From: Nemertoderma westbladi
Lineage: Eukaryota; Animalia; Xenacoelomorpha
Length of the DNA: 33,468 nt
Assembly: GCA_032718475.1 (NCBI GenBank)
Contig: JAUCBJ010007845.1
Coordinates: 1-33,468 of the forward strand
Direction: 5' to 3'
Part shown: one piece after another, positions 1,405 to 31,393 of the stretch
How positions within the stretch are numbered: the first letter of the stretch is position 1
Layout of the letters: the number at the start of each line of letters is the position of its first letter
Made by a program: the position numbers and the translations under genes
The notes under the pieces: generated by a model
What the model was told of the DNA's origin: nothing
The model's input: only the letters and a program-made list of their open reading frames with translations
The model's database searches: none

Positions 1405-1542
1405 AATGGCGTAGGCCAGTTGAATGGCTTAGGCCAGTTGAATGGCTTAGGCCAGTTGAATGGCTTAGGCCAATTGAATGGCTTAGGCCAGTTGAATGGC
1501 TTAGGCCAATTGAATGGCTTAGGCCAGTTGAATGGCTTAGGC
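1405..1542 (+). repeat. 18-bp minisatellite (aatggcttaggccagttg), about 7.7 copies
   Basis: Near-perfect tandem units starting immediately after the LTR end. It explains the repetitive ORFs 1287..1547 and 1360..1647. Confidence 0.95.
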
Positions 1543-4792: not shown

Positions 4793-4800
4793 CCGCTCCC
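4793..4800 (-). other. Polypurine tract (GGGAGCGG) for plus-strand priming
   Basis: The minus strand reads ttttctGGGAGCGG directly before the TGTAAAGG start of the 3' LTR. Confidence 0.7.
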
Positions 4801-4870
4801 AGAAAATGGGATTTAAGTCTATAAAATATAACAAATCACAGTTTCTAAAATATAAAAATACTCTAAACAG

Positions 4871-6392: not shown

Positions 6393-7225
6393 ATCTGCTA
6401 TATAAGTTTATCCATATTATAATGAGTTTATATTTAGGCGAGCGGGCGTCGCTGCCTACCCCTCTCTGCCCCCGGACAGTGCGAGATCCTCAGCACTGGT
6501 GTACTTTCGCCGATGTGCCTATCGCCAACGTCGTAGCTGCACAACGACTACAACGACCAGCACGAGCCACTCCACCGTCCGTCCCAAAGGCTTAGATATA
6601 CTTCAGGTTCTTACTGGAGAGTTAGGGTTACTTTCACAATTGCGACTCGCTACTGTAAACACACCTTAGTAGTAACATTCACCTACAAACGCACAAATTC
6701 CACATAACTGTCACAAATTGTACACGTTCTATCACACATTCGGGTCATTTGTCCGTTAGTCAAGTGCTTTCCAGAATGTCACGGTGTTATTATGTATCCT
6801 TGGATACTAGCGGTGTGCTATTTATTCCGTATGCTATTCAATGTGGCAAGCCTTCTATTGTTCTTTTAACTCACTTCTAATTCTAGCGTGGTTGTTGCCA
6901 TGGTGACATTATGGAAAGCTAGCAGTAGAATTAGGGTAATTCTCATGCATACAGATCTGGGATGCTATTTAATAGTAATTCTTTAATTGTCAATATCCTC
7001 TCTATATATGATTTTATGAATTTTATCGGCTATTGACTATATATTGGAGATTCTCGCACACAAATACACTTAATAGAGTGAATCTCCGCTCCCATGATCT
7101 ATTAATTAATGGAATTTTGGGAATGTTATAAATTGTATAAAATGACAATTTATTAAATTCATTGAAATATATGAATTTAAATTTATTCCCGTAAATTTTA
7201 TTATTTAATGTTAAATAGACGTAAT

Positions 7226-7490
7226 TTTATTCCAGAACGTGTCTGGGGACTGGGATCCTTGATTCTAGGAATTTTGTCCTTTTAAGAGTATCGGTAAGTG
7301 CTACGATATCTTAATCGACTAGAATGTTAAAGGATCTAAAATTTGACAGATTTTGTAAATATTAATAATTAATATTTAGGATGGGCACCAGTTTATTCCA
7401 GAACTTGTCTGGGGACGTTAACCACTGATTCTAGAATTTTGTCTTTCAAGTATATCGGTGGGTGCCGCGATATCTTAATCGACTAGGATT
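7226..7490. repeat. Two diverged copies of an about 100-bp motif (about 7226-7326 and 7392-7490)
   Basis: Shared tttattccagaac.tgtctggggac, tgattctag, aattttgtc, tatcggt and cgatatcttaatcgactag. Confidence 0.8.
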
Positions 7491-8035
7491 GCAGATGGTC
7501 AAAGGGTTTAACAGATTTATTTTGCGTTATACGCTACTGTTAAAGGGAAATCACGCTACTATATGTATTATTTAATATACGGTATGAGAGCAATATCGCA
7601 CGAAGCAATGTCAGTGTGAAGAGGCAAGTCGTTTCCAAGGTCTACCCAGAGCTTGGTTTAGCCTAGACACGAGGATCTGAACTTTGCATTCCTAATACTC
7701 TGCCTACCAATAATACTTGAATATAGTAGTGGCTTTATTGTACTTTAATAAGTACGGACATTTCATCTTACTATAGTTACGTATTCGTAATGTAATACGG
7801 GCAGCAAGGAAAGAGAAAAAGAATTGTTTCTCGCCATCGCACTAAATATATAATATAAGTAATTACGTAATAAACGCGAATATATTGCACTAATCTACTA
7901 AATAATCGCTAAAATAACATGCTACTAAATAAAATTAAATAAAACGATTATAATAAAATTACATAATAATACATACATAAATATAAAATAATAAGAATAT
8001 AAAATAATATGGTCACACGCCCACTCCATATGCTA

Positions 8036-11000
8036 CTAAGCTGGGGAGTCCCTAGATGTTTGTTGGATTAGGGAGGTGGTCGTGGGAAGAGTATCTTGTC
8101 TCCCATAGTTTCCGGAGAGTTCTCTGTCTCTTTCCAGTAAACATAAGCGACCAACTGGGCGATTGAGCTGCTGCGTCTCGAAGACAATTCCCGGTTTCTT
8201 GAAGTTACGTCGCATGACGACGAGTTCTACCGATCGCACCAAACCATCATCAGAGATGTGAGTCTCGATGATACGACCTGTCTGCCACCGCTTACGTGGA
8301 AGATCTACATCCACAATAAGAACCATGTCTCCAGCGCTGACGTTTTCTAGCTGCGCAAACCACTTAGTGCGAAGTTGTAGCGTGGGCAGATAATGTTTTT
8401 CAAAATGATCAGCGAAACGACGGGATAACAACTGCATGAGTTGCCAAGTTTGCCGGCAGTATTCGTCTCCGTCTGTGATTTCCGATTGTGGGAGCATGGC
8501 TACAGGTTTCTTTAGTAGGAAATGCGCGGGTGTTAGCGCTTCCAGGGAATCGGGACTCGATGAGACTGGCATAAGCGGTCTCTCGTTGAGATAGGCGGCG
8601 ATTTCCTCCATTAACGTCCGCAAAAGTTCGTCGGTGAGATACGCGCGGCAAGGCACTATAAAGTGAAATGCTGTCTTCACACTTCTTATTAATCTCTCCC
8701 AACTTCCTCCCCACCAAGGGGCGTCGGCGGCGTTGAAGGTCCAGCTAGACGCTGTTACTCGTAGCTGATCGTCCACCTGTCTTTGGTTCCAGTCCTTGAC
8801 GTAAGCTTTGATTTCATTGTTGGCACCAATGAAGTTTGTTCCCTTATCAGATCTCATCGTGTTACTAGTGCCAAAGCGAGCGATCTGTCGTCGTAAGCTT
8901 AATAGAAAGCTGTTGGTAGATAAATCGTTCACCATGTCGAGATGGATAGCTCTACAAGTCATACAAACAAAGATGACACACCATCTCTTGACTATAGTCC
9001 TAGCACGATATACTTCAATAGGGCCAAATAAATCCACACTGGTATTAGTAAAGGGTGGTTCATAGAAGCTTACTCGTTCCCTAGGTAATTCTGCCTCTCG
9101 CTGTGTTAAAGGCCTACTGAATGCTTTCCTACAGGGTATACAGTTCCTAAGAACTTGGTTCAGAGCTCTACGGGGTTTATAAAAATAATAGCGAGTTCGA
9201 ATTTCGCTAAGAACTCGTTCCCTAACAGCATGATAAAGTTTGCTGTGAACGTCTACAATCATCTTGACTTGTATTTCAAGATTTCTAATGAGTATGGGAA
9301 ACTTAGTGTCAAAGGATAGTGGAGCATTCGTTAATCTTCCTCCAACACGTATCAACCCATCTATCATTGTACTAGAGAAACGATCCCTTAAGCGCATCTG
9401 TGGATTTCTCAACAACAGGAAATACTTATCGGAATCCTCATAGCATTGCAGGAGTCTCAGCATCTGCTTGTTGGTTTCGTCATGCTCCTGATAACTGATC
9501 TTCTCCTTCAGAAACCTGTCGGGTATCTTATATTTGGGAAGATCTTTAATAACATGGACCTGCACTGATGTTATTGGAGAGGTATCACCTTTGGCCTTCA
9601 TCCCGGAGTAGTGATGGTGAAAACATCTCTTTAAATATGTAACGGCCTTACAGAGCCGATTCCAGGAACTGTAGTGATGTATCGCTCTCTGCAGAAGAGG
9701 TGAGAGTCCTTGCGAGACATCTGGTATTCCAGATTTCCAATCCTTCTCACGGATTTCCACAACACGTTTATTGGTGGCTGTGGGTTTCTTATCCAAAACG
9801 TCGTCTCCGGAAATATGTAGTACAGACAGATCTACCATGGGTTTGAATAACTTCGATTTACTCGCCCGAGTTTTAGGTTTGACTTTCTCCGCTCCCTTGG
9901 CCTGTCTAATCTCTGCTGTAGTAAGATGAGGAGGCCATTCTTCTTCTTCTTTGTAGAGGAAGTCGGGTCCACCTAACCAGTCTGGAGTGTCTACCAGTTC
10001 TTGTGGAGTTGCTCCCCTGGAAGCGATGTCTGCTGGATTAATCGTTCCGGGGCAATGTCTCCATTGATCCATCGTTGTGCGACTGAGTATAATGGCTACT
10101 CTGTTGGTAACGAAGACGCTGAACTGACAGACTTCATTGGTTATATACTCCAACACGAGTAAAGCGTCGGTCCAATAGACAGTTTTCTCCAGTGGATAGT
10201 CGATCTGTTCTGTTACATTCCGGCCGATGGCTGTAGCGTATAGAGCCGCTTTTAACTCCGCTCGAGGAACTTTCAACTTGTTGTTTATCAATGCCTTAGA
10301 GGTAACCAAGGCGACTTTGATTCCGTCCGGAGTTTCCACCCTTAGGTAGGCTACTATACCTATTCCCATATCGCTGGCGTCTCCAAACACATGGAGTTGA
10401 TAGGAATACGTAGGGAGAACATGACCAAAATATGAACGGGAAATTATAAAGTTCTCGATGGCTGGTAGAGAATCTTCCCATTTCATCCACTTCTTTAACA
10501 ATTCTCCCTTAAGTGGATCGTCCCATGAGTGGTTTTCAAGCCACATTTGTTGTACTAAACTCCGAGCAATCAATATAACTGGGCTAATAAATCCCAATGG
10601 ATCGAAATAAGTGCTCAGGATACTTAAACAAATCCGTTTAGTCCGAACTGGATTATCTCGCTGTTTTAGTTGGAAAAACAGGATATCTCTTTCAGTGTCC
10701 CATTTCAAACCAAGAGTCTTAGTTTCTGGGAGATCATCCTTTATTAGATTCAGGTCTTTTGCTCCTCGATCTTCTACCGGGATCGACTCCAGAAACTCAC
10801 GGGAGTTGCTGGTGAATTTAGTTAATCGAAATCCACCTCTTTTTAAGCACTCTACCGTTCCTTTAGCGACCTCAATGGCTTCTTCGACTGATGGAAGGGA
10901 CTTTAGATTATCGTCCATGTAGATGTCTCGTTTGATATTGTCGATCACCTCTTTAGAGAAGGCGTCTCGGTTGTCATCCGCGGTGGTGCGCACCACGGAA

Positions 11001-12976
11001 CAGGCGTTTGAAGGGCTCGAGATTATCCCAAAAGCTTGGATGGTCATCCAGTACTCCACCGGTTTCTGGTTGAGGTCTCCTTCAGGCCACCACAGAAATC
11101 GTAGGCTATCTCGATCCCTATCCAGCACTTTGACTTGTAAGAACATGCCTTCTATATCTGAGGCGAAAGCAATTGAATATTGTCTTAATCTTAAAAGTAT
11201 TCCCAACAATGATTGGAGTAAGTTGGGTCTGGGTAACAATTCGGAATTAAGGGATTGGCCCATATAGAGGGCGGAGCCGTCAAACACCACTCGTACTTCA
11301 TGGGGTTTACCGGGTTTGGGAACGTAATGGTGAGTTAAATAATACGTTCTCTCAGTTATAGGTGTTTCTTCCGGTACTAGCTCCGCATATCCCTTGCTAA
11401 TAAACTTCTTCAACTGCGTTTGATACATTTCTTTAGCTGAAGAATTTGCCGTAAGGCATCGATGTAGTTGAGCAATTCTTTTCTCCGCCAAGGGTCTGTT
11501 GTTTACGAACTTTGGTTCTCGCTTTCGGAAAGGTAGACCGATCTCATATCTACCTTGATCTTTAAGAAAACGTATAGTTGTCGCTTGGATCTGCTTGGCT
11601 CTTTCTTCCTCTACCGATAGGGCCTTATCGTAGGAGTTGGGCTCTACAGCCTCTTGAGTAAAGAATCGTACGGCATGTTCATCCCGAGTCTTGGCATTAT
11701 AACGTTCAACGACGTCGTTAAGCTCGTCGTTATAGTCATCTCGTTCTGATGGAAGAAGGAGTTGACATAAGTTCACTTGGTTTTGCCAAGTCTCGTTTTC
11801 CTGAAGGAGATCGATTGTATTCTCCTCATCGAAGAGTTGGTGTATATCGTCGTTGTCTGAGGAGTACGGAGTTCCCTCAGTTGGATCGTCTAACTCACTG
11901 TTCTCAACTTCCCATTCTCGCACTTGATATACCTGATCTTTCGGTAATCTTTCCATGAGAGTTCTATGGGAAGGGCCAGTAAAGTACCAACCCACTCTAG
12001 TTCTTCCCGCATAAGGTTGTAATGGTTGCGGTTGAGCGGGCCGTTTCTCCAATGTCTCGAGCGCTTCATGCGCGTTTTGACCGATGAGTATTTGCACTCC
12101 AGGGTAATCGGTGTCGAATCTAGGTATTTCCAGTTGCTGGGTGAAATCGTCCTCATCCCAGTTATAAGGTTCCACTTGGGTGGTAGCGAAGTTCTTTATC
12201 GCCACCATTTTTACTGACCTTATACTATGTTCTCCTAGTTCATCCTGGGGGGTGGACAACGCACCTACATAATAATCCGCTATTACTGTAGATTTCCAAA
12301 CCTGCATAATTCCTGACATGTTTAGCTTAGTTCGGAACTTTGGTTGTCCAGCAAAGATGTCTTCGGCTAGTTCTTTGTCGATGAATGTTCCTGTACTACC
12401 GGAGTCAAGGAGGGCGTTCACTACATAACTCCTTTTAGGTCCGTGGACCCTTACCTGTACTACAGGAAATTCTCGGATTCCTACATTAGAAGTTGGCGCT
12501 TTCCAAGATGGTTGTCGATCAGAAGTAGTTAGAGTGAGGTCGCTGTCTGTATCTTTTTCATACATGAGTGCTCGATACACTGCGGTATTTATCATGTAAC
12601 AGGATTCGTTTTCATCGGAGAACTCGTCCGTATAGAATCCTTCCATCTCAGATTGATCAGTGTCGTTCACATCACTGAATTGGACATGTAGTTCGGAATC
12701 ACTTACCTGACTCGGACTATTTCGCTCGAATTCAGTGTGCAACAAGATATGATGTTTCGCACCGCACTTTGCACACCTTGTGTCGGAGTAACAGGTTCGC
12801 CGTTGGTGTCCTTGTCTGAGGCAATTATAACACAACCGCTTATCCCACATGACTTCCCGTCTCTCCGTTAATGATTTCTTCAGGAATTCATCACACATAT
12901 TCAAGCGGTGGGTCCCGTCACATAGCGCACATTTCGGTTTGATGTTACTTACCTTATTTTGAATAACATTGTGCAC
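8036..12976 (-). CDS. pol: Uninterrupted 1646-codon nucleocapsid-pol portion (zinc knuckles, protease, RT, RNase H, integrase)
   Basis: Zinc knuckles CALCDGTHRLNMC, CYNCLRQGHQRRTC and CAKCGAKHHILLH; protease ALLDSGS; RT SDIEGMFLQV and YMDD; RNase H LHVFGDAS, PRAELKAA and YWTDALLVL; integrase HSKLYH..CIPC, VDLFGP, RSDKGTNF and APWWGGSWERLIRSVK. Confidence 0.93.
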   Translation of the reverse strand: MHNVIQNKVSNIKPKCALCDGTHRLNMCDEFLKKSLTERREVMWDKRLCYNCLRQGHQRRTCYSDTRCAKCGAKHHILLHTEFERNSPSQVSDSELHVQFSDVNDTDQSEMEGFYTDEFSDENESCYMINTAVYRALMYEKDTDSDLTLTTSDRQPSWKAPTSNVGIREFPVVQVRVHGPKRSYVVNALLDSGSTGTFIDKELAEDIFAGQPKFRTKLNMSGIMQVWKSTVIADYYVGALSTPQDELGEHSIRSVKMVAIKNFATTQVEPYNWDEDDFTQQLEIPRFDTDYPGVQILIGQNAHEALETLEKRPAQPQPLQPYAGRTRVGWYFTGPSHRTLMERLPKDQVYQVREWEVENSELDDPTEGTPYSSDNDDIHQLFDEENTIDLLQENETWQNQVNLCQLLLPSERDDYNDELNDVVERYNAKTRDEHAVRFFTQEAVEPNSYDKALSVEEERAKQIQATTIRFLKDQGRYEIGLPFRKREPKFVNNRPLAEKRIAQLHRCLTANSSAKEMYQTQLKKFISKGYAELVPEETPITERTYYLTHHYVPKPGKPHEVRVVFDGSALYMGQSLNSELLPRPNLLQSLLGILLRLRQYSIAFASDIEGMFLQVKVLDRDRDSLRFLWWPEGDLNQKPVEYWMTIQAFGIISSPSNACSVVRTTADDNRDAFSKEVIDNIKRDIYMDDNLKSLPSVEEAIEVAKGTVECLKRGGFRLTKFTSNSREFLESIPVEDRGAKDLNLIKDDLPETKTLGLKWDTERDILFFQLKQRDNPVRTKRICLSILSTYFDPLGFISPVILIARSLVQQMWLENHSWDDPLKGELLKKWMKWEDSLPAIENFIISRSYFGHVLPTYSYQLHVFGDASDMGIGIVAYLRVETPDGIKVALVTSKALINNKLKVPRAELKAALYATAIGRNVTEQIDYPLEKTVYWTDALLVLEYITNEVCQFSVFVTNRVAIILSRTTMDQWRHCPGTINPADIASRGATPQELVDTPDWLGGPDFLYKEEEEWPPHLTTAEIRQAKGAEKVKPKTRASKSKLFKPMVDLSVLHISGDDVLDKKPTATNKRVVEIREKDWKSGIPDVSQGLSPLLQRAIHHYSSWNRLCKAVTYLKRCFHHHYSGMKAKGDTSPITSVQVHVIKDLPKYKIPDRFLKEKISYQEHDETNKQMLRLLQCYEDSDKYFLLLRNPQMRLRDRFSSTMIDGLIRVGGRLTNAPLSFDTKFPILIRNLEIQVKMIVDVHSKLYHAVRERVLSEIRTRYYFYKPRRALNQVLRNCIPCRKAFSRPLTQREAELPRERVSFYEPPFTNTSVDLFGPIEVYRARTIVKRWCVIFVCMTCRAIHLDMVNDLSTNSFLLSLRRQIARFGTSNTMRSDKGTNFIGANNEIKAYVKDWNQRQVDDQLRVTASSWTFNAADAPWWGGSWERLIRSVKTAFHFIVPCRAYLTDELLRTLMEEIAAYLNERPLMPVSSSPDSLEALTPAHFLLKKPVAMLPQSEITDGDEYCRQTWQLMQLLSRRFADHFEKHYLPTLQLRTKWFAQLENVSAGDMVLIVDVDLPRKRWQTGRIIETHISDDGLVRSVELVVMRRNFKKPGIVFETQQLNRPVGRLCLLERDRELSGNYGRQDTLPTTTSLIQQTSRDSPA

Positions 12977-14836
12977 ACTCGTTCATTCTTCGGGCTTTCT
13001 CACCTGAATTCTCTTGGGAGACGTAGGAGGATTTTTTCTTACCTGTTCTCTCCTGTCATTGGTTCGAGACTTGAATTTACTTACCTGATCTTTAGGCATT
13101 TTATTGACATAATAAGATCTTTCAGTGTCTTTCCCGCTATCCTCTCCTTGAGAAGTCTGGCTTTCGCCGTCGTCTGTATAACACACTGGTGTTACCTTTC
13201 TCCTAGAGACGGGTTTCTCACTTACCTTGTTTTCCGGTGTCTTTTCTCTGGACTGCTTTATGAGCTGTAGTTTCACTTCGCCATCCAAGAATGACATGAG
13301 ATCAGCCATGGTAGGGTCTCATTGTTGTTGTTCCATCATATATAACACTTTCTTGTCCCAGCGTGTACCTACTCCGCCCTTCGGTAAAGTAGAAGCCACT
13401 GCCCTAATAACCATAGCACTCTGATACTCATGAGACTTACCTAGGCAATCTAATTGTCGGCAGATCTCCTGAATCTCATCGGAAAACTCTATAATCCCGC
13501 TGCTAATAAACTTTCGGGGCGCTACCAACTTTGCATACAAATACCCAGCTATGTTATTCCTATTACCATACCTGATGTTTAGTGTATCCCAAACTTGCCT
13601 TAATCCGTCTGGATGTCCAATAAACTTTAACGCCATTAACTTGGGAGATCCTTCCAAGCACTCGATGAGGAATCTAAGTTTCTCTCCATTAGATAGTACA
13701 GAGTTCTGTATGTTATCTTTGTAATATTCATTAAAAGGTAACCATTTCATCTCATCTCCATTGAACTTGACGATCTCTCCCACCTTTACCGCTTGCCGGG
13801 CTTCGGTTCTAGCCATTTGATGCGTAAAACTTTCTTGGGCCATCGTGTTATTTAATATCGAGTTATCGGTATATAAATTTCTCGGATTATGATCAGGTCT
13901 ATAGGGAATATCATTATCAACAGGTCGATAATTACCCTTAATAGGGTTCACTATAGGAGTTTCTACTTCGCTAGCAGTATATATGCGTGTAGGCTCCACA
14001 CCTTGCGCATGAGATACTTCAGACCTAACAGGTTGACACATTGTTACCGGGGGTGGTGGTATACCCTTTTGTAAATTTGCCAATTTATCGCGTTCTAGCG
14101 CGATACTTTGCTGCACTTCTTGCAACTCTAACCTACTTTCCTTTACGGTTCCCTTTAACTGTTGAACAGTCCCTTCTAACTCTCGGACCTGTAGGGAGGA
14201 TCGCACTCGATTCTCCTTCATCTCTCCGAGGAGAATATCCATCCCCCGCCGTCTCTCGTCTACCCAATCAACCGCAGAAGCGGGATCCGCCAACGTCGTA
14301 GCGGGCAGACGAGGGACTACGGGCTATATATCCTTTATATTTCGCTCGGAGTCCAGGACCGACACTGTTTCGGGGGCTGTTCCTCTAGGCACAGGTAATT
14401 TGGTGCTGTGTAAAGGGAATTTAAAGGTGGGTTCTGGGAGCACAGGTGTCTCTATCACCAAAGGGGTGATTTCAAGAACAGGCCTAATTATTTCAGGCTC
14501 ATCTACTATAGTAGGGAGTCTTTCTATTTCAATTATTTGTTCTGTGGGTTCTGTACTACCTAAGTTTGTGTTATTTAGTTGTTTTCTAACAGCTGGGGGC
14601 AAATCAGGCAGTTTCTGGCGGTGGGATATTCTTCTACGTCTGCTTAGACGAGATCTATTTCCTCCGCCTTCAGCATCGGTGGTATCGCCTTCCTCAGATG
14701 ATGTATATCCCTGTCTTTTGGGAGTAGATCGATTCATCATCTGCATATTACTAGCTGTTAATTGTTTATTGATGTTGTCTTGCCTCTCTTGAAGATTTTC
14801 CAACTCTAGTTGGGTGGTCTCTTCAGCCGCTCTCCG

Positions 14837-14947
14837 TTCTGCTTCTGCCGCTGCAGCTGCCAAAGCCGCTTTGCTTTCTGCCTCTGCCACTGCAGCTGCC
14901 AAAGACGCTTTTCTTTCTGCCTCTGCCACTGCAGCTGCCAAGGCCAC
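14837..14947 (-). repeat. 39-bp in-frame tandem repeat (3 copies) encoding ALAAAVAEAERK-like helical units in the Gag N-terminal extension
   Basis: ttctgcctctgccactgcagctgccaa recurs at a 39-bp period. Confidence 0.85.
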
Positions 14948-17469
14948 TTTCTTTCTGTCTTCTATCCGTTTTTTCTTTACTTGTTCTTCTTGGACTCTAG
15001 CGATGCGGAGTTGTTAATCAAATTTAGCTTGGTTCGCAGCTATCCTATCCACATCAATGGCGTCCAACACACGCTGGGCTCCTTCACTATTAGGGCTAAG
15101 CCCCTCTAGTCTTCTCCTCAACTCTTCATCTCCTACAAAACGTTGATAGTCCGACAGATAGATGTCAATGGCATCCCTCTTATGCGGCTTCTCTGCCGTC
15201 GCTTCACTCTCCACTTGGGAAAAGGTAGCGTCTGTGGATTCCCCAAGTGTTGAGCGCTCATCTAACTGCGATTTCCACGGGGCAGCTCTTTGAACTTGGA
15301 GACTCACCCGTTGAAACCAAGTCTTTACGGCAACTTGCAACGACGTGTCTTGTTTTCTTTTAGAAGCCTCCTCAAAGGCCGATAAGATTAGCCTGATTCG
15401 TAGAATTCTTTCTCTAACTTGATAAAGCAGCTGTCCCTGCTCTTGAGGTCCTTGTGGTTGTTGAAACAGTTGTTTTTCTAATCGCTCAATGGAGCTGAAG
15501 AATCCCTGTACGTATCCGGCTGCTGACCTCTTCCACACAGCTGGATCGATGGTTTCCTTGGTTACTCCCATCCTGTGTATATCTTCCCAGACAGCTTCTG
15601 ATAAATCAAACGGGAGTCCGGGTCCGGGGAAGTTCCATTGCGACTCAACAATAGACTTCAGTTCTTCCCTTGTGTATCCCGCATAACTATCTTTAGTCGA
15701 TTGCTTACTTCTCGCCCAATCGATCTGGTGTTCTTCCACCGCAATCAATAACCTAGTGAGTACGGCTGCAGGAAGGATGAGAAGGGGATCCGAATAAACC
15801 GCATCCGTCATCTTTGCCCCGCGCTCGGGTGTCAGCTCTACAGTATCCTCACTACTGGAGCTGTCGGGCCATTGAGAAATAAGTTCTTGGCTCGCGGGTT
15901 GTTGTTCCGCTGCTTCTTGGTCCCGCTTGACCTGAGCTCGAGTGCCTATGATAGACCTACGGTGTTGGATTAGCCTAGGGTCTGATATTACTACAGGAGG
16001 GATGACCTTCCTCACAGTAGGAGGCGATCTGAACTTAGGTCTAGACGGTTCTACATCCCTATCTGAGTCGCAGATAGTTACATCTAATAAACTGTCTGAC
16101 AGGTTCTGCTTAGTATCAGACATGTTTGTTTGCACAGTTGAATGCTTACTGCTATATTACAGTCTAAGCAAGTCTAGTAATTCAGTATTAACTGTTAGCC
16201 TAGTAATTAATTACCGATACTGCTACTCAGTGTAGCGTGATATATATATAATATGATATATTATAATACCGGTATGCTTGTAGTATATATAAATTTTATT
16301 ACAGACTAGGTTTGTCGCAGAATACCGGTATATAATTTTAGCACAAATATATATAAATATATAATAGGCCTATCGTGAATACCGGTATACAGGCCTACAC
16401 TTATAGTATATATAAGTATAATTCTGGACTAGAATTAATTACAGAATACCGGTATAATTTCAGCCTAAATTTATAGAAATAAAGATAATAGGCCTATCGT
16501 AAATACCGGTATATCAATTATTTAAATAATTGAATTTCTGAATTTTAAGGGTTACTTGGTTACTTTAACTTACTTTATTACCGTTATTTAAGCAGTAGTC
16601 CAACTGATATTGAGACCTAATTGTTGTATGGCAGGCCTACTATTTATAAATCGTTTGAGTTGATTTATAATATATATACCCTTATAATGGGTTTTGTCAA
16701 TATTTGAAATAAATGTTATTATTTCTGGGGAGTCACTACACAGAAGCTGTGCGCTCTCAGTGAAGTGCTACTTGTTGGACACTAAAACAAATAATTCTAA
16801 TTTACCTAAGTTACTTAATACTACAAATTACGTACAATTCGGGTTGAGATTACAATCTCTAAATAAACACAAAAATTTAATTACAAATACACAAATACGA
16901 AATTTTAGGGTAATTTTACAAGAAGTCTACAAACCAGCCTAACAAAGGGTTAGAATATCTGGTTATTACAACGGACAGGGTACTACGGTATTTGAAAATA
17001 ATAAGTAGTAGTAAATATACTGCGTTGTCCAGATAGGAAAATACCACCGTCTGACGACCTATAGCCGTATCGCTATAGGTACTACGTTATGTATCACGGA
17101 GTGTTCCTACCCAGAAGTTAATTACCGCGGTCTACCAGAACCAACGTGCCTATTAACCACTTTACAACACAAATATACTGCCTACACGCTAATTACCTTC
17201 GGAAAGCACTGTACACTAAACCCTAAATTAGGTACAAGTACTTGTACAACAAATAATTAGTAGTTAAAAATACTTGAACAGCTAAAAGAACCACGGTATC
17301 TGCCGGAGTGACCAAAGCATAAAATCTCCAGTCTTTACCTACGCCGAGCAGCCCTGATGTAGTACCGGGGTTAGTTTAACTATTACGGTATGTATAACAA
17401 GCACAATTACTGAAGGAATAAACTTGGGGATATGAATGTTGCGAATAATCGCATAAACTCTGAATAATA

Positions 17470-18041
17470 AATATTACGCTACGCGTACAAACTACTCAAA
17501 CAAAATGCAGACTAAATACTGACAGACTACTATCAAGCCTAAACAAACTACGGTATGTGCAGACTCCGAAATGGTTAGTTAGTATGCGTTCTAACCTAGT
17601 AGTACGACTTATTCTTTCACAGGGGGTTTACCTCACAGCACTGGAAGCCCCTACGTTCCCAACTGGCACTTTATCGGACATACACTCCACACACACCGAA
17701 ACTTCTTCAGACCTAGCAACAGCCAGACAACTATCCAGCCTACAAATTATCTAAATAAGAATTATACGCTACCTGTACAGACTACACAAACAAAATACAG
17801 ACCAAACGATGGCAGACTACTATCAAGCCTAAATAAACTACAGTATATGCAGACTCCGAAATGATTAGTTAGTATGCGTTCTAACCTAGTAGTACGACTT
17901 ATTCTTTCACAGGGGGTTTACCTCACAGCGTTTGAAGCCCCTACGTTCCTAACTATCACTTTATCGGACAGATGCTCTACACACACTGCAATCCGTTCAG
18001 ACTTAACAACAGTTAGACAACAGTCAAGCCTACAAATTATC
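17470..18041. repeat. 290-bp tandem duplication in the 2.2-kb 5' leader of the BEL element
   Basis: tatcaagcct at 17531 and 17821; long identical block ttagttagtatgcgttctaacctagtagtacgacttattctttcacagggggtttacctcacagc. Confidence 0.9.
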
Positions 18042-18312
18042 TGTACAATCTGAGCAGGCTTACACGCCTTCTGCTCAATACTGGCCTACAAATAAACAAA
18101 ACTTGACAGAAATAAGTAAGCTCCAAAAGAAACAAGGGGTGTACAGTCCCTAATCTCTTAAACAGCCTACCGGTATACAATTTCACAATCGAATAATACT
18201 GCTGTACCTGTACTGCTGTAAGTACCGGTCCGGGTGATCAGGCAGTCAGGCCTACAGGTTTCCGGTCGACCGGTACTTTCGACTTGATTGCTTACGCCGC
18301 AATCCAGAAGCA

Positions 18313-18323
18313 ATATCTGTTAT
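18313..18323 (-). promoter_or_regulatory. Candidate self-priming primer-binding site (ATAACAGATAT on the minus strand)
   Basis: It abuts the 5' LTR, lacks the TGG of a tRNA PBS, and is the exact inverted repeat of LTR positions 19040-19050. The same arrangement is present in the second element (163-174 vs 916-927). Confidence 0.75.
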
Positions 18324-19485
18324 TGTTTGCGCTTTTAAGACCTTTGACAGTTTAACCTGCCAAATTGGGATGTCTTTTAGATGATAGATAGTCTTTAGCC
18401 TATGACGAGTATTTGATACACTACATTAGCCGAAGCCAGTCTATGCGCAACCATTCACCCGCTGGATATACCCGGGAGACTGGATTCGGAAGCTTAACTT
18501 GATTGAGGTGTAAGCCTACTGTATTATTCGACTGATCGTAATATATAATCTCTGACAAATATTATTCACTTTCGGGAAATATTAACAGTTCCTTTAGGAC
18601 ATGGCGCTCTAAATATGTAAACAGAGTTATGACTTAAACTAGACACAACGAACTGGCTATAGATTCACGTATATGGCGCATTCTTTAGGAAATGCTTTGT
18701 TATCAGTTACAATCATACACAATGCTGCACAATACTGCACACTAATCTACCGACCTTCACTAATTTTAGTCACATATAAAGAGAGCAACAGACAATCTAT
18801 GTCGGGCCTATGAAATAGCATTAGATTCACTTCAAACCACTTAATGTAAGTCGCAATCGTTATATGTATCCGGTCTCTCTAACCTTTAGTATATCAAGAA
18901 GATTGGGGTGTCTGATTTTTGATCAGTATTCCGATATAATATTTCATCAACAAATATAATGAATAACCGACAGCAAAGCAGTAATGTTAAGTAAGATATG
19001 TATGATATGTTAAGGTAAGAGTTGAGTTGTTTTGGTTTGATAACAGATATACGTTCTATAATTAAGCCTACTAATGTTAAGCTAAAGACTGAAACACGGA
19101 GGTGCCAAAAGCCGGTGTTCTTAGGCTCTGGGCAAAAACATATACACTGAATTCATGAGTTTCTGTATCCAACCTCCAACACAGAGTCAAAAAACGCTCT
19201 GATTGGTCGACCGAACAAAGAGAGAACAAAGAACAAAGAAATGTTCGACGTGGCAATATCAGCTGTTAGCCGTCGTCATGGTAGCCACACTGTTTTCAAG
19301 AGTATCCGGCTTATTGCGTCACAAAATTGCGGATTATATCCGCTAAAGTACACCTACAGAAGAAATTACTCTTATGTCCTCTAAAACACCAGTACAGTAA
19401 GGACACGGCCTTTTTATGCCCAGTAAACCAACTACAGAGTACTTTACGGGGAAAATAACCGGCTAGTTACGCAAAAGCCTTTACA
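18324..19485 (-). repeat. 5' LTR
   Basis: 1162-bp direct repeat of 3631-4792 with TG...CA termini. It contains CCAATCAGAG on the minus strand (about 19197-19206), conserved in the diverged LTR. Confidence 0.95.
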
Positions 19486-19855
19486 TACAGTAAATACATA
19501 GTAAAGGAGCTGGTTACAGATTGAAACAGTTGAAACGAATCAAAACAATAAACGAGAGTTAGTAATATTGTAGAATAGAAAATAAAATTTAATTGAGAAT
19601 CAAAATCGACCTACTGGAACTCTGAAAAGCCTGGAGGCCCCGAAACAGGATAGTTGTAGGCCTACTGTACTGTTGTATAATTATTTTCTAGTTTATGTTT
19701 TTCATGCTGTATAAATAAAATGGACTGTTCTACAGTACAACAATGATACCAAATACCGTTAAGTACTGATGGCCTTAGAGTACAGCAGTAGAGATACCGG
19801 TTCCCTGGAAACAAAATAAAAAAACTGACAAAAACGTAAAAACACCACAATCTTC

Positions 19856-20304
19856 TACGGTGGTGATTTTGGGCCACTTTGTTCTTTTTTCAAAGGTTCG
19901 TGAGTTTTTCCTTTCCAGTTTTCTGCAAATATGAAAAGCAAAAAGTTTATTAGTGGTTTTTACTTTCTCCTTTTTAGACAGTTAGAAATGTGTAAAGCAA
20001 AAAGTTTACTTAGATATATTATAGTTTTTGCTTTCTCGTTTTCAGAAATATGAAAAACAAAATGTTTATTACCGGTATTTATTAGCGCCCAGCTGACCTA
20101 CATACTGTCCTATAGCAATGGGTCTAGCCTATTAAAATATTACACATTTCTGAACAGAATAATACACTTTTGCTTTACATATTTCAGAAAAGGAGAAAGC
20201 AAAAGCTAATAATTAACATTTTGCTTTTCGTATCTGCTGATCTGCGTTAAACTGTAAAGCAAAAACTCAATGAAAGAACGAAGTGGCCCAAAATCACCAC
20301 CGAA
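19856..20304. mobile_element. Non-autonomous IS3EU-like element (MITE)
   Basis: TIRs TACGGTGGTGATTTTGGGCCACTTTGTTCTTT / AAAGAACGAAGTGGCCCAAAATCACCACCGAA and 6-bp TSD ATCTTC (19850-55, 20305-10). TAYGG termini with a 6-bp TSD are typical of IS3EU. Confidence 0.75.
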
Positions 20305-20336
20305 ATCTTCTTAGCAGCTCAGTCTATTCCTTCCTG

Positions 20337-21264
20337 CCCAGTGAAAAATGCGCATGCGTATCGCAAGTGATTTTAAAGCGTCATGCGTTTTTATTGCGGC
20401 TCAATAAATAGCGATAAAACTCTTGTGATTCGCATGTGATTCACATGTAAAATAGGGAAGCGATTCCACGCATGCGATTCACAACTTATTTTACGCATGT
20501 GATTCCGTGCATGAAAATCGCATGCGAATCACACCTCATTTAACGCTTATTTTACGCATGTTTTACACCATGAGAATCTCATGCGTTTATTCCCATGTGA
20601 ATCGCATGGTTTTAATTACACTCAAGATTATTAATTAAAATAAAGTTGCCTATCAAGAAATAAATAGTTTTAAAATATAAAATTGATGAATATGAATTAT
20701 CTAATATGGCTGTCGAATTCAGTGATTATATTAATATATTTTATAGAATTGAAAATTATAGGGAATAGTTAAAAGTGTATCATGGTTATTCTAATCTATT
20801 TGTATTATCCTTTATATTAACAACCATTTCTAGTATTGATTCATACCGTATGTCTAATATTATATGTCTAGAGAGTGTAATGTAATGTAATGTAAGGTAC
20901 TGTAAGTACAGTAGGCAGATGATATGGAAGCCAATAGTATCAAACAGTAGTGGAATAATCAACTACTGTATCATATTTTCTGTCACAAAGTTCTCAATAT
21001 ATTACACAAAATTCACAACCAGTAGATTTCTGTGATATTTATGCGTCATCACGCTTGAAAGTCGCAAGTGAATCGCATGTGTGTTTGATGCGACTGAACG
21101 CAAGTTGTTGCGATATTTATGTGACTTAACGCAAGTTGTTGCGATATCTATGCGGCTTAACGCAAGTAGGTCGCTTGCGTAAAGGTCGGGCCATAACTCT
21201 TGGGAATCACATGAGATACGCCTGCGTTGCACGCTTGCGATACGCTTGCGCACTTTTCACTGGG
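20337..21264. mobile_element. Non-autonomous EnSpm/CACTA (CMC)-like element
   Basis: TIR CCCAGTGAAAA(A/G)TGCGCA(T/A)GCGTATCGCAAG at both ends, 2-bp TSD TG, and many subterminal cgcatg/cgcaag motifs. Confidence 0.8.
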
Positions 21265-21265
21265 T

Positions 21266-21410
21266 GTATTCAATGATACAGATTTGAATTTACCGCCAAA
21301 ATATAGGTGCCAGATCTGATCTGCCACCCTTTCCAGTACAAATTATATGTGTTTCAATCATTTAGAATTTCCTGGGCTATGGGACAGGGTGGCACCTTTT
21401 AGGGACTTTG
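21266..21410. mobile_element. Orphan terminal arm of the same foldback family as 21876-22885
   Basis: Matches 22766-22885 directly and 21876-22023 inverted (agatttgaatttaccgccaaaatata, cagggtggcaccttttagggac). Confidence 0.75.
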
Positions 21411-21875
21411 TGTGTTAAAATCTAAGCATCTTTGGATGAAGTAAGCATAAGCCTGTAAGCTGAAGCTGAAGGTTCACCCAGCTGACCGGAAGGTCACTCA
21501 CTGTGTATTTGTGACGTCAGCACGTCAAAATCGGGAATCAGGGGAACTGGAATCAAACCGCAAGTATTGCAAGAGTGATAAGAGAGAGTAGGACAGGACG
21601 ACCAGTGCAGAACTGCAGAATACTAATGTAGTAAGGCAATACACAGGTACAGCTGTACAGAAGTGCAGTAGCAGTACAGCAGTTAGTCCTTTGTCCTTTA
21701 TTCTGTCTGTCAGTCATTCATTATTCTGCAGTTCTGTCAGGTACCGGTACCCTAATTCTGAGTGCTGGCTGGCTCGTAACCTCGTACTACTGTACTACAG
21801 TACTAGGCCTAACTGTTCTGCTGTTAGCGGGAGTGTTTGGCCTATAGTAGGCCTACAGTATACCGGTACCGATAG

Positions 21876-22885
21876 ACAATTCCCTAAAAGGTGCCACCCT
21901 GCTCCATAGGGCGGGAAATTCAAATGATTTGAAAGACATGTTTTTTGTACTGGAAAGGGTAGCAGATCAGATCTGCCACCTATATTTTGGCGGTAAATTC
22001 AAATCTGTTTTAACATTGAATACTGGAATACGTCATGAATAGACTGATAGAGTAAGACTAATGTAATTAATTGAATCAGAATACAGGAATAAAATATTTA
22101 TTATCGGTTCAACTCACTCATCTGTCGTTGTTGTTGTTTTATCTATTCTGGGACTTCAAGCAGCACGTGAACAACTAAGCTGATTGGTTAACTGCTAAAC
22201 TGACTACTACAGTAAGAAGTTTACAGTACTGCAGTATGAAGTCTACTACCCTAGCTCCTTGACCTTTTAGTACGTACCAACGTACATACAGACATACTGC
22301 AGCACACTGTGTACAGTTTGTAATGGAAATATGCTAATTCTGTAATTTGAATCAACCGCAAAAAATATATCAATTAACTGCTCCTTTCAGCCTTTCTTTC
22401 ATCTATCTACTTAAAATCTACTATTAATATACTAGGTATAACTGGTATAAGTGTATAATTGTTATAATTATAATGTTCTGATGTAATTATAAGTGATACA
22501 AGCAAGTAATAAATGTTCTTTACATTTACTGATAGAAGTTAAGCCAAATCCGCCGACCCCCCCCCCCCCCCCCCCCTCATCAATTTTCAATTTCGCCCGA
22601 AGTCCCAGACTGCCAGACTAGTTAACCAGTCAGCTTAGTTGTTCACGCCTGCTCGAAGCTTCAGAATAGATAAAACAACAACAATAACGGATGAGTGCGT
22701 TAATTAAACCGATAAGAAATAATTTATTCTGATTCAATGAATTACATTCGTCTTACTCTATTCATGTATTCAATGTTAAAACAGATTTGAATTTACCACC
22801 AAAATATTCCAGTACAAAAAACATGTTTTTCAATCATTTGAACTTCCCGCGCTATGGAGCAGGGTGGCACCTTTTAGGGACTTGT
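21876..22885. mobile_element. 1-kb foldback MITE with about 270-320 bp inverted arms and 8-bp TSD (superfamily uncertain, possibly P-like)
   Basis: Ends ACAATTCCCTAAAAGGTGCCACCCTGCTCCATAG / CTATGGAGCAGGGTGGCACCTTTTAGGGACTTGT; TSD ACCGATAG (21868-75, 22886-93); arms about 21876-22195 and 22620-22885. Confidence 0.85.
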
Positions 22886-23139
22886 ACCGATAGTGAGTGG
22901 AGTATACCGTTAACTGTATACACACCACACAATCTGCAATCAACCGCATCCATCCGTTTACAGGTACAGCAGGGCTGGCTGGCTGGACTGGCATTGAACA
23001 CAGCTGCACAGTGACACTGCTGCGCTGTCTGATTGTCTGCAGACTGCCAGAACCAGACTGTTGCAGCTCAATTTTACTTTAATACTCTCACTCTGTTCAG
23101 TGTTCAGCTGTTGCTGCTCTGGGCTGCTGGGCTTAGCCT

Positions 23140-24224: not shown

Positions 24225-24427
24225 TAGTTGCCAAGGTAACGTTGTTTATATTTACCCTTTTAGTTGCCAAAGTAACGTTGTTTATATTTACCCTTTTAGT
24301 TGCCAAGGTAACGTTGTTTATATTCACCCTTTTAGTTGCCAATGTAACGTTGTTTATATTTACCCTTTTAGTTGCCAAGGTAACGTTGTTTATATTTACC
24401 CTTTTAGTTGCCAACGTTACGCTGTTT
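24225..24427 (+). repeat. 36-bp tandem repeat duplicating the exon 4 splice acceptor (about 5.5 copies)
   Basis: Unit ttgccaaggtaacgttgtttatatttacccttttag; AG acceptors end at 24227, 24263, 24299, 24335, 24371 and 24407. Confidence 0.95.
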
Positions 24428-25021: not shown

Positions 25022-26990
25022 GGCCTGGTGTCGGTAGCGGTCCGACAGCTAGCCGTTTAACCGGCCTGGTGTCGGTAGCGGTCAGACAGCTAACCGTTTA
25101 AACGGCCTGGTGTCGGTAGCGGTCCGACAGCTAACCGTTTAACCGGCCTGGTGTCGGTAGCGGTCCGACAGCTAACCGTTTAACCGGCCTGGTGTCGGTA
25201 GCGGTCCGACAGCTAACCGTTTAACCGGCCTGGTGCCGGTAGCGGTCCGACAGCTAACCGTTTAAACGGCCTGGTGTCGGTAGCGGTCCGACAGCTAACC
25301 GTTTAACCGGCCTGGTGTCGGTAGCGGTCCGACAGCTAACAGTTTAACCGGCCTGGTGTCGGTAGCGGACCGACAGCTAACCGTTTAACCGGCCTGGTGT
25401 CGGTAGCGGTCAGACAGCTAACCGTTTAAACGGCCTGGTGTCGGTAGCGGTCCGACAGCTAACCGTTTAAACGGCCTGGTGTCGGTAGCGGTCCGACAGC
25501 TAACCGTTTAAACGGCCTGGTGTCGGTAGCGGTCCGACAGCTAACCGTTTAAACGGCCTGGTGTCGGTAGCGGTCCGACAGCTAACCGTTTAACCGGCCT
25601 GGTGTCGGTAGCGGTCCGACAGCTAACCGTTTAACCGGCCTGGTGTCGGTAGCGGTCCGACAGCTAACCGTTTAACCGGCCTGGTGCCGGTAGCGGTCTG
25701 ACAGCTAACCGTTTAATCGGCCTGGTGTCGGTAGCGGTCCGACAGCTATCCGTTTAACCGGCCTGGTGTTGGTAGCGGTCCGACAGCTAACCGTTTAACC
25801 GGCCTGGTGTCGGTAGCGGTCCGACAGCTAACCGTTTAACCGGCCTGGTGTCGGTAGCGGTCCGACAGCTAACCGTTTGACCGGCCTGGTGTTGGTAGCG
25901 GTCCGACAGCTAACCGTTTAATCGGCCTGGTGTCGGTAGCGGTCCGACAGCTATCCGTTTAACCGGCCTGGTGTTGGTAGCGGTCCGACAGCTATCCGTT
26001 TAACCGGCCTGGTGCCGGTAGCGGTCTGACAGCTAACCGTTTAATCGGCCTGGTGTCGGTAGCGGTCCGACAGCTATCCGTTTAACCGGCCTGGTGTTGG
26101 TAGCGGTCCGACAGCTAACCGTTTAACCGGCCTGGTGTCGGTAGCGGTCCGACAGCTAACAGTTTAACCGGCCTGGTGCCGGTAGCGGTCCGACAGCTGA
26201 CCGTTTAACCGGCCTGGTGTCGGTAGCGGTCCGACAGCTAACAGTTTAACCGTCCTGGTGTCGGTAGCGGTCCGACAGCTAACCGTTTAACCGGCCTGGT
26301 GTCGGTAGCGGTCCGACAGCTAACAGTTTAACCGGCCTGGTGCCGGTAGCGGTCCGACAGCTAACAGTTTAACCGGCCTGGTGTCGGTAGCGGTCCGACA
26401 GCTAACCGTTTAACCGGCCTGGTGTCGGTAGCGGTCCGACAGCTAACCGTTTAATCGGCCTTGTGTCGGTATCGGTCCGACAGCTAACCGTTTAACCGGC
26501 CTTGTCTCGGTAGCGGTTCGACAGCTAACCGTTTCACCGGCCTGGTGTCGGTAGCGGTCCGACAGCTAACCGTTTAACCGGCCTGGTGTCGGTAGCGGTC
26601 CGACAGCTAACCGTTTAACCGGCCTGGTGTCGGTAGCGGTCCGACAGCTAACCGTTTAATCGGCCTTGTGTCGGTAGCGGTCCGACAGCTAACCGTTTAA
26701 CCGGCCTGGTGTCGGTAGCGGTCCGACAGCTAACCGTTTAACCGGCCTGGTGTCGGTAGCGGTCCGACAGCTAACCGTTTAATCGGCCTTGTGTCGGTAG
26801 CGGTCCGACAGCTAACCGTTTAACCGGCCTGGTTTCGGTAGCGGCCCGACAGCTAACCGTTTAACCGGCGTGGTGTCGGTAGCGGTCCGACAGCTAACCG
26901 TTTAATCGGCCTTGTGTCGGTAGCGGTCCGACAGCTAACCGTTTAACCGGCCTGGTGTCGGTAGCGGTCCGACAGCTAACCGTTTAACCG
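25022..26990. repeat. Intronic 41-bp tandem satellite, about 48 copies
   Basis: Unit ggcctggtgtcggtagcggtccgacagctaaccgtttaacc, head-to-tail with no unique spacers. Confidence 0.97.
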
Positions 26991-28002: not shown

Positions 28003-30921
28003 TTACGAGTCAGCTAGGAATGATTCCTCCCAAATTGGTGATGAGAACGTAGTGAAAACTGGCATCACATCCTCCCCATAATCCGCAACCTTCGCTTCAT
28101 CATCACCTACTTTGTCCCGGCCACACTCTGCCTCAACGATGACCTGGCGACACGCTGCCTCAACGATGACCTGGCCACACTCTGCCTCAAATATGTCGGT
28201 CCCGATCACATCTTTGTCCTCAAATCCTAGAAAAGGACCCACAGTCTTCTTTTCCTGAGGATGTACCGCCATGTGTCGTCCAACAGCAGCCTTATTCGGC
28301 CAGGATTTACCACATATGGGGCATTGGCAGGTGCTGATCTTATCAACCATTGAGGGGCAATATGTATCGAATGGAAGTGTTATAGGCACGCGAATAAGAG
28401 TGCGCTCCTGTAGACTGGCGAATCTAGGTTTAGGCAGTTTAACTGCCTCGCTGGATGGGACCAGCCCTAATCCCCTTCGCGAATATTCGACAACAGCAGG
28501 TGGTGGCAAGAAGCGTTGGGGGAATATAGCTAACCAATTAGAAATGAACTTCTTGCAGCAGGCAATGTTTTCACACTTAACAATTTGAAGTGCATACTTC
28601 GATTGCTGTACATGGGTTGCTAACCACTTGGCACTCATAGAAGCTGGTTTAATTTCTGATTCTTTCGGACGAACGTTTGTAATGACTGGATGATTGTCAA
28701 TTATGGTCGATGACCAAACATCAGCCAGTGCTTCAGCGGCAGCTCGAAAATTGGCAATTTCCAGTTCGGTATCAACTGTCTTTCCTGCCGAATCGAGATG
28801 GTTACCATAGCTATCATGGGGCAGTATAATACCAGACAGGTCGTGTGACAGGGGTGCCATTCGCCGCTCACATGGATTAAATGCTGATAGACCAGCAGCA
28901 TTAGCTGCTCTAATCACAACGTCATATCCGAATGTCTGAAAAATATGGATATCAGCGTCGAGGATTTTAGGGTAACGCGGACCCTCGTCACTTGCTCCAT
29001 CGCTTTCTATTAATAGTATTGGCGTTTGTGGTACGTGAACCTCATCTCGTAATACTTCCACCATGTCAAACAGGTGGGAAAACGATGTAGATTTATCGTG
29101 CTTTCCAGATCTAATGCTAATGAATGTGTCTCCTGAGTAAGTTAGTTTACCTCCTTCGCTGATATCACACTTGGCATAAACTGAGGGGATCAATTTATGC
29201 CTGGGAGCCACCACAAAATCATGGTCAGGAAGGCGCACCCGATATTCCATATGCATTGCTAGTGGAGCTTGAGAGTTGGCTGCAGTTAGACCAATTGGAA
29301 TTCGGGCCTTATCATCAATGGACATGAATGTCACTGCTGTACCTCCAAATAAACAACACACCTCGTGGAGATCTTGTACGAAGGAGGCAGCAAACTGGCG
29401 GTCGATATTTCGTTTACGAAGGTTTGACTCGGGACGCAGCAGTTTTACTGGGACTGTGGAAACATGTCGCTTTCCTTCCTTTGAATTACAGCGACGTGGA
29501 AGTAGGCGGATATATAAGGCAGATCTGTGAAAACATATAGTTTTTTTTATACCTAATTATTTTATACTTTCTACGTATATACATTTACACTGTAACACTA
29601 ATACACCATAAAACAGACAGAGACGGATATCAAATACTTGGATCGTCGTCATCTGTGAATAATGTGACTTACCTACACTGAAAAAACATACCTGTGGTTA
29701 TTTTTTAAAAAACTGCCAGTTTCTCGTTAAACCTCTGGTTAATCTCGGGACAAAATAACCAGAAGTTTTTCTAAGAAACTGGCAGTTTTCAGTACTAAAA
29801 TAACCCAGGGTTGTCACTTGCAAAAACGACAGGTTCTTTAGTATATTAAACCCCAGGTCAAGTTAACAAGGGGTTTATTTATGGAATATTAATTAAAATA
29901 TTAATATTAATTAAGATAATTAAAAAAAGGCTATAAAAAATGGCTATTTTGGTGCAACGGGGCGGGACACCACAGCCATAGGCCGCTAATGAGCGTAAAT
30001 GTAATATGGTAAAACTGTAATTGTGCCTAACCTAGATAATTTGAAGTCTAGCTTCATTAGTTACTCATGCAGATCATCTATGGTAGTAACTGTTCTCAAA
30101 GTATTTGTACGACGGCGATCATCTGCAGCGGTTGACTGCAGCACTATATTAATTATAGCCTTTAGAAGCTCAGGTTGGTCAGTCTGTAGTGAAGGTCGGC
30201 CTTTCTTTTCCTTTACTTTGTTGAATATCTTATTACTTTCTGGTAATTCCTTGCGAATTTGTAGTATTGCGTCCCTCATTCTATCCCGAGCCTTCTTTTT
30301 CCTCTTTGCATCATTTACGAGTGCATTAAGTTTCCTTTTTGAAGCCTTTATTTTCAATTTTTGAGTTTCTATATCGCGCGTTGTCACATTGGATAACCCC
30401 GACGAACGGCAATCCAACATAGTTAGTAGTCTTTTCTCATCCATTGTAATTTCTCCCTCAATCCTATCACGAGCTGGGGTTTCCAAGTTTCTAGGCTTTT
30501 CAGAATCCGACGTGGTAACATGCATTGCAGACTCTATTTCACCTGGCAATGCAGACTCTATGACCTCAGGGGAGGCAGATTCTATGATCTGGGGGGAGGC
30601 AGACTCCATGATCTGAGGCGATGCTGTCAATGCACCTCGTATGGCAGAGGCAGGTTGACCTGTCTCTGCGGATTCTGCAGCACCACATGCGCTGGACTCT
30701 GTGGCGCCAATCGAATAAGTTTGGAACATATGCCATGCATTTATCTTCGCGGCTGATTGGCGGTGTACCAATTCTTGTAATTGTGATTTCTTGGCCAACA
30801 GGGCCGCTTTATCTTTTTTGAGCAAGTTCCATTCTTCTTGCCCCTTTCGGAATTGCTTCTCTCTAGATAACTCGCTATGCGACTTTCTATATAGTTCGAT
30901 AAATTTATTGTATTCCGACAT
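28003..30921 (-). pseudogene. Zator-superfamily DDE transposase, two exons (30921-30032, 29524-28003), about 803 codons with one premature TAA (30061-63)
   Basis: Motifs GRPSLQTDQPELLKAI, SALYIRLLPR..EGKRHVSTVPVKL, SIDDKARIPIGLTAA, LPDHDFVVAPRHKLIPSVY, IRSGKHD, SDGASDE and SAFNPCERRMAPLS; C-terminal C2H2 finger CPIC..HMAVH. The GT-AG intron 30031-29525 restores the frame (LSR|SAL). Confidence 0.85.
29676..29870. mobile_element. Truncated CACTG-ended (CMC-like) MITE fragment in the transposase intron
   Basis: ta|CACTGAAAAAA start and internal inverted repeat aactgccagtttct / agaaactggcagtt; second terminus not found. Confidence 0.4.
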
Positions 30922-31393
30922 TGCTGGGAGTTATTACCGGTACCGGTAGCCTATTTATCGTGCAGCCTTAGGCCTGCCGGGAGTGGGCACTAGTAAAGAA
31001 TAGGGGACCGCAGTACTGACCAGTACATTATCAAACTGAAACTACTTATTAGCCAGTATAATATAGCGTTACGGTACGGGCTTAATACATTGTAATACAT
31101 GATAAACTTCACGTATACTGTACAGTGTACAGGTACACCCATCAAGGGTTAGGTTGGCCGTCTCCCCAGATTCTGAAATTGAAACTGAAACGTTTACTTT
31201 CACTTTAAATATGCGGGGCCTAGGTGCCCATCCCAAAGTTAAGTTTAGACTACATTTGGCCATATGGGCTGCAAAGTTGACAATAAAAAATTTAAAAACA
31301 GACGTCCGAATTTTGCTACACCCCCCCCCCCCCCCCCCCCCCCCTGTCCGTAAATGTCCGGATTTGGCCGACCCCCCTCCCCCCCCTCTAGCT

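Follow-up and report, generated by a model that had tools for sequence, protein, structure and literature searches.

Several LTR retrotransposons prime reverse transcription with their own RNA. [quoted passage not shown] Such self-priming is described for the Tf1/sushi group and predicted for Tcn1 and TAR in the portions consulted of PMC6317226, PMC4600332, and PMC10085805, and the sections seen of PMC5445492 and PMC5443660 mention it for Tf1 only. For TAR-type elements, the rule applied is that at least 10 nt of the LTR are complementary to the region 0–5 nt after the 5′ LTR (PMC6317226, excerpt). The Belpaoviridae, or BEL/Pao elements, are described by the ICTV as carrying an 18-nt PBS that pairs with the 3′ end of tRNA-Arg or tRNA-Gly from the host in a genome of 4.2–10 kb (PMC8742986). 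Word searches of the accessible text of a BEL/Pao survey (PMC3118150) and of the Sinbad paper (PMC554778) returned no statement on the PBS or on priming, and neither "primer" nor "tRNA" occurs in the text available of PMC6238403. Self-priming or a splice-built primer in BEL/Pao was not found in the open literature searched.

The window analyzed here is a stretch of 33,468 nucleotides of Nemertoderma westbladi DNA (contig JAUCBJ010007845.1), within which a 15.9-kb LTR element (element 1) lies on the minus strand. Its 5′ LTR (18324–19485) and 3′ LTR (3631–4792) are each 1162 nt long with TG...CA ends and are 99.4% identical (7 differences), and a polypurine tract (4793–4800, minus strand) precedes the 3′ LTR. 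The gag region (12983–16156, minus strand; first ATG at 16123) matches DUF1759 and contains in-frame stops at 15016–15014, 14326–14324, 13321–13319, and 12985–12983 (TAA, TAG, TGA, and TGA), with no frameshift. It is followed by an open pol frame of 1648 codons (8036–12982, minus strand; 4.9 kb), in which a domain search and motifs placed, in order, three Cys-His boxes, protease, reverse transcriptase (RT; YMDD), RNase H/Pao peptidase PF05380, integrase, and DUF5641. Domain matches comprised PF05380 (E = 4e-36), DUF5641, an integrase zinc finger, and DUF1759; the same search gave no chromodomain match in element 1. Among the matches listed, the best homologs were Pao polyproteins with about 43% identity over RT–RNase H, those named coming from cnidarians, a nemertean, tunicates, a fish, and a barnacle.

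Element 1 therefore has the PR–RT–RH–IN order, the Pao-type Pol and Gag domains (PF05380, DUF1759, DUF5641), the three Cys-His boxes, the TG...CA LTRs of 1.2 kb, and the polypurine tract of the Belpaoviridae, but it differs from the ICTV description in being without a tRNA site and in its length of 15.9 kb as against 4.2–10 kb (PMC8742986). It is an atypical member of BEL/Pao, retained there despite its non-tRNA PBS because the superfamily is defined by Pol phylogeny. No target-site duplication of 4–7 bp was found around it (19486–19500 compared with 3616–3630); near-identical LTRs without such a duplication could have arisen by recombination between two insertions or by integrase-independent insertion. 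The leader (16157–18312) is unusually long at 2.2 kb and includes a 290-nt tandem duplication at 17459–18042. The 3′ region (4793–8035) is also long, at 3.2 kb, and its short frames at 5571–6407, perhaps a decayed extra gene, gave no Pfam match. Elsewhere in the window, a 41-nt unit forms an array of 48 copies with 95% matches (25022–26990), and there are short arrays at 1405–1542 (18-nt unit) and 24225–24427 (36-nt unit), several nested inverted repeats at 19858–23000 typical of small non-autonomous DNA transposons, and two long minus-strand frames at 28003–30930 (517 and 289 amino acids), one with a weak C2H2 zinc-finger match, possibly a DNA-transposon gene.

Directly after the terminal CA of the 5′ LTR, the PBS of element 1 (PBS1; 18313–18323, minus strand) has no TGG. 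Its contiguous, perfect 11-nt complement, the predicted self-primer, is found on the minus strand within the LTR itself at 19040–19050, 716 nt from the LTR end, with a copy in the 3′ LTR at 4347–4357; the reverse complement of PBS1 occurs in the window at these two places only. A diverged second element (element 2) has its 5′ LTR at approximately 175–1405 (minus strand), about 76% identical to that of element 1 over the downstream ∼700 nt; with its other LTR lying outside the window, its ends were fixed by homology to element 1, and its internal part also extends beyond the window. Here, PBS2 (163–174, minus strand) again has no TGG, so that neither element has the 18-nt site for a host tRNA of the ICTV description, and its perfect 12-nt complement, the predicted self-primer of this element, lies at 916–927 (minus strand). 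In both elements, the predicted duplex begins at offset 0 from the terminal CA. PBS1 and PBS2 differ at two positions, and both differences are mirrored at the partner sites such that the pairs are kept; that the same 2 of 11 positions should change by chance has a probability of 1/55 (hand calculation). When internal positions were used as mock primer sites, 3 of 13,501 gave at least 11 complementary bases in the element 1 LTR (2.2e-4), and 5 of 13,501 gave at least 12 in the element 2 LTR (3.7e-4). The family is highly repeated, with 9595 contig records of sequencing run X1 aligning to a 1.6-kb stretch, and among the 40 of 326 differences listed between four contig sets and the window, none fell at either duplex site; these sets gave no indication of a start site or of the strand.

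This pairing had been proposed in a first-pass annotation made from the letters of the sequence. All of its coordinates for the LTR sites, PBSs, and partners checked, and the missing TGG, the perfect 11- and 12-nt complements flush with the terminal CA, and the covariation of two positions at both partner sites were recovered on recomputation. The pairing feature in the two window elements is confirmed as real. The accompanying remark that neighboring LTR sequence is poorly conserved holds downstream of the partner site but not upstream, where about 13 nt are well conserved. On a larger scale, conservation between the elements is much stronger in the downstream half of the LTR (18324–18900; 175–780), where identical blocks exceed 20 nt, than in the upstream half. 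Rfam gave no credible match over 16000–19700 (best E = 2), so that there is no support for a known ribozyme within the conserved portion of the LTR. There is no A(A/T)TAAA in the 5′ LTR of element 1; element 2 has an AATAAA at 368, inside a 17-nt segment missing from element 1.

Where transcription would start bears on whether the primer is the very end of the RNA, as in Tf1. A CCAAT box with a putative promoter role (19199–19206, minus strand; 1087–1080 in element 2) and a TCAGT motif (19146–19150, minus strand; 1027–1023 in element 2), a putative initiator by its resemblance to the consensus, are both kept. They lie 156 and 161 nt (CCAAT) and 100 and 101 nt (TCAGT) upstream of the partner site in elements 1 and 2, respectively, a spacing that points to a start near 19148 and thus to an internal primer. 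A pyrimidine–purine step is also kept at 19050 in both elements, and a start there would give 11-nt primers. TATA-like motifs were of little help: in relatives they lie 31, 49, or ∼133 nt upstream or are missing, and their spacing, which fits L012, is inconsistent overall as a predictor of the start. As judged from these motifs, the internal-primer geometry is slightly ahead of a start at 19050. The Tf1-style proposal of the first-pass annotation survives in part: for tRNA-independent self-priming, the support is good and reaches further than claimed (the signature is present in 13 of the 16 relatives without TGG and in none of the seven with TGG described below), but that the primer is the first 11 nt of a transcript beginning at 19050 is doubtful given the motifs ∼100 nt upstream. 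The lengths assigned to U3 and to R plus U5 depend on that assumed, not observed, start.

The end of U5 (18324–18480, minus strand) appears to be structured, with a predicted helix of 18450–18445 with 18332–18327 beside the PBS and an 8-bp hairpin. In the LTRs of both elements, folding of the last ∼160 nt is more stable than that of shuffled sequences (z = −3.04 and −2.57). The helix ends three bases before the PBS, on its 5′ side, and in element 2 one of its pairs has changed on both sides, from U-A to C-G; double changes were seen in 2 of 49 predicted U5 pairs. In whole-leader folds, which were unstable, the primer:PBS helix of the window elements formed under one of five settings, and it reached a mean probability above 0.7 in three of six spliced relatives.

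For relatives, searches were carried out with an alignment of the window pol and 39 of the 120 homologs listed. They yielded 118 loci, BEL/Pao elements from host DNA, of which 42 came from genome contigs and 76 from metagenome contigs; the latter were drawn from the best 80 of 599 confirmed stretches and so number at least 76. The 42 animal-type loci L077–L118 lie in contigs that are filed as genomes of bacteria or archaea, an indication that these bins contain host DNA. No relatives were found among viral contigs, the exact LTR pattern gave 0 matches in metagenomes, and ARAGORN found no tRNA in the window or in the 118 loci. The end of the 5′ LTR could be defined in 23 of the 118 from the repeat between two LTR copies; it was moved by motif in L041, L049, and L112 and rests on a 55-nt overlap in L001, L012, and L070. 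For each, the score was the length of the longest perfect complement that starts 0–4 nt past the LTR end and is either contiguous or joined across a splice donor and an acceptor separated by 40 nt or more; 600 internal and 600 shuffled mock sites per locus served as the null.

All seven loci with TGG near the LTR end scored 4–6 bases, the background level, whereas 13 of the 16 without TGG scored 10–15, a level reached by no more than 3 of 600 null draws. The 13 positive loci represent nine families on the FastTree tree, and the match length is centered on 11–12. The three misses were L081 (8; a single mismatch leaves 10 of 11), L064 (6), and L027 (6); in the 3′ LTR of L027, a contiguous match of 13 nt at a greater offset was noticed only after scoring. 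Between the closely related L079 and L080, two bases of exon 1 differ, and the two matching PBS bases differ as well. A cross test of 13 × 13 sites (one locus per family, L080, L081, and both window elements) gave at least 10 bases in 12 of 13 own pairs and in 0 of 156 foreign pairs. Ten of the 13 positive relatives have A(A/T)TAAA downstream of the primer, as is required for an R region, and AATAAA follows the primer directly in L079 and L080. When the scan was run without known LTR ends, 21 of 86 loci matched, compared with 10 and 6 of 86 in two controls; because of this high false rate, the extra candidates are treated as leads and are not counted. A contiguous match in L065 was dropped as false, since it lies outside the LTR.

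Only one of the 13 positive relatives (L061) has a contiguous match; in the other 12, a match of 10–15 bases exists only across a predicted GT-AG intron of 67–451 nt. Few complements came from a contiguous search of the relatives; the partial matches follow splice acceptors, and their other halves precede GT(A/G)AG donors. The donor rule was fixed after the first sequences had been looked at. With no splice rule applied to 10 split LTRs, the GT-AG split was the single best in three, tied in three, and beaten in four, so the splice signals themselves form part of the evidence; a relaxed junction scan was too permissive. In most relatives, splicing would thus be predicted to build the primer, and in the window it would be ready-made: GT(A/G)AG occurs nowhere in the LTR of element 1, which rules out an intron-split primer there. 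The sister loci L011 (contiguous) and L017 (split) align too poorly in the LTR to show precise intron loss. Going by these sequence patterns, the predicted splice-built form in relatives is the more surprising part of the finding.

A FastTree phylogeny of RT–RNase H comprised the window and 104 of the 118 loci, the others being too short. An 82-row group (support 97) held the window and 22 of the 23 split-labeled rows and none of the nine TGG rows. With IQ-TREE on 33 chosen RT–RNase H rows, a split with support 93/92 separated 22 rows, the window and L096 included, from 11 rows with all seven TGG rows, and TGG versus self type required one change on this tree; split versus contiguous required five changes among 19 labeled rows, some of whose labels come from the loose scan. 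The branch of the window RT is long, and its placement on the TGG side is not rejected by an AU test (p = 0.30), for which reasons its shared ancestry with the split elements is no more than likely. We regard the window element as likely to belong with the split-type lineage, with moderate support from these trees. L096, a divergent element with a 14-nt split match (2179–2812), fell outside the self group in FastTree and inside it in IQ-TREE.

Among known systems, the window element is most like Tf1, Tf2, and Tj1 and the wider Tf1/sushi group of Ty3/gypsy chromoviruses, sharing with them the lack of a tRNA site, a perfect same-strand complement of ∼11 nt inside the 5′ LTR, a PBS flush with the terminal CA, and a structured U5 beside it. 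The match lengths of the relatives, centered on 11–12, are likewise close to the 11 bases of Tf1 (PMC7175516, in the part consulted). The Tf1 PBS also begins with ATAAC (PMC11042837, in part), probably a coincidence since the relatives vary. The differences are that Pol is of the Pao type and has no chromodomain match, such that the element would work like a member of this group but is not one; that its primer may be internal, in place of the first 11 bases; that 716 nt separate the primer from the LTR end; that a predicted splice junction divides the primer in most BEL/Pao relatives; and that the three-duplex "pretzel" of Tf1 (PMC10085805, as far as that text was available) was not recovered in the window, where, with whole-leader folds unstable, one conserved helix lies 5′ of the PBS. 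For the Ty1/copia elements TAR, Houba, and Osr-1 and for Tcn1 of plants, self-priming is likewise predicted from sequence (PMC6317226, excerpt), in superfamilies other than BEL/Pao. The window passes the TAR-type rule; taking contiguous matches only, that rule would miss intron-split primers.

The best explanation of these observations is a known mechanism, self-priming, in a superfamily described as tRNA-primed: BEL/Pao elements whose PBS perfectly matches their own LTR are likely primed by their own RNA and not by a host tRNA, to which we assign a probability of roughly 0.75. On the best reading, Tf1-like self-priming would span a BEL/Pao lineage in which the primer is usually built by splicing. 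The alternative that survives best, although we think it improbable, is that a primer of the same sequence acts in trans, as a separate short LTR transcript packaged with the genome and derived from solo LTRs, from the 3′ LTR, or from a 5′ LTR in which polyadenylation came early. The high copy number of the family and the AATAAA right behind the primer in L079 and L080 would suit such a transcript, but a 3′ end at the primer would still require a cut, and the PBS/LTR covariation within single elements is most simply explained by priming in cis. A little less probable again is that the pairing is a regulatory or packaging structure, such as a leader closure or a translation switch, with something else used for priming. 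The structured and conserved end of U5 is in keeping with this, as is a primer helix that folding does not consistently favor; set against it are a match that begins 0–4 nt from the LTR end, the place at which synthesis of DNA has to begin, that is present without TGG and gone with it, and whose length is confined to 10–15 nt.

Distinctly unlikely is priming by a host tRNA half or other small RNA, as in copia, Osser, and Bianca, with the LTR match secondary. The hexamer CTGTTA, common to both window primers, resembles a tRNA-Asn anticodon loop, in favor of this possibility. Half-tRNA priming does exist (PMC6317226, in the portion consulted), but the PBS changes from family to family yet fits its own LTR, and a fixed host RNA leaves the double changes and the matches across splice junctions unexplained. 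Chance complementarity in AT-rich sequence, for which the false matches of the loose scan and of L065 might speak, is very improbable indeed, being rejected by the mock-site nulls on loci with defined ends, by the cross test, and by the double changes.

Self-priming in these elements could proceed as follows. Pol II would initiate within the 5′ LTR, either at 19050 or, as is more probable, ∼100 nt upstream; in most relatives, splicing would then remove the LTR intron and so create the primer, which in the window would already be contiguous. The primer would anneal to the PBS, and the element's RNase H would cut at its 3′ end (19040/19039), as in Tf1, to leave a 3′-OH. From there, extension by RT would run through U5 and R, and minus-strand DNA would be copied to the cut before its jump to the 3′ end. 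As the primer site lies upstream of the cut, it and any intron would be rebuilt from the 3′ LTR, and an RNA whose 3′ LTR had also been spliced would yield an intron-less LTR like that of the window. Plus-strand synthesis would copy the primer into a new PBS, much as at the ends of Tf1 cDNA (PMC11042837, in part), keeping both matched during drift; we propose that this is why the PBS varies by family yet stays matched to the LTR of its own element, junction-spanning matches included.

Taken together, we lean, though not strongly, towards a reading in which a large BEL/Pao lineage of aquatic animals swapped its tRNA primer for one built by the spliceosome from two LTR exons. Intact regeneration would then come only from RNA that had lost the intron of its 5′ LTR but retained that of its 3′ LTR; intron-less forms such as that of the window would have arisen repeatedly via reverse-transcribed, fully spliced RNA, and the primer would perhaps be cut from inside the leader and not at the cap end. 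Self-priming in these elements, if true, would be a third independent origin of the mechanism, after the Tf1/sushi Gypsy elements and the predicted TAR Copia elements, and it would explain the BEL/Pao elements that have no findable PBS. Splice-made primers would be missed by existing screens for contiguous matches, and they would couple RNA processing to the onset of reverse transcription.
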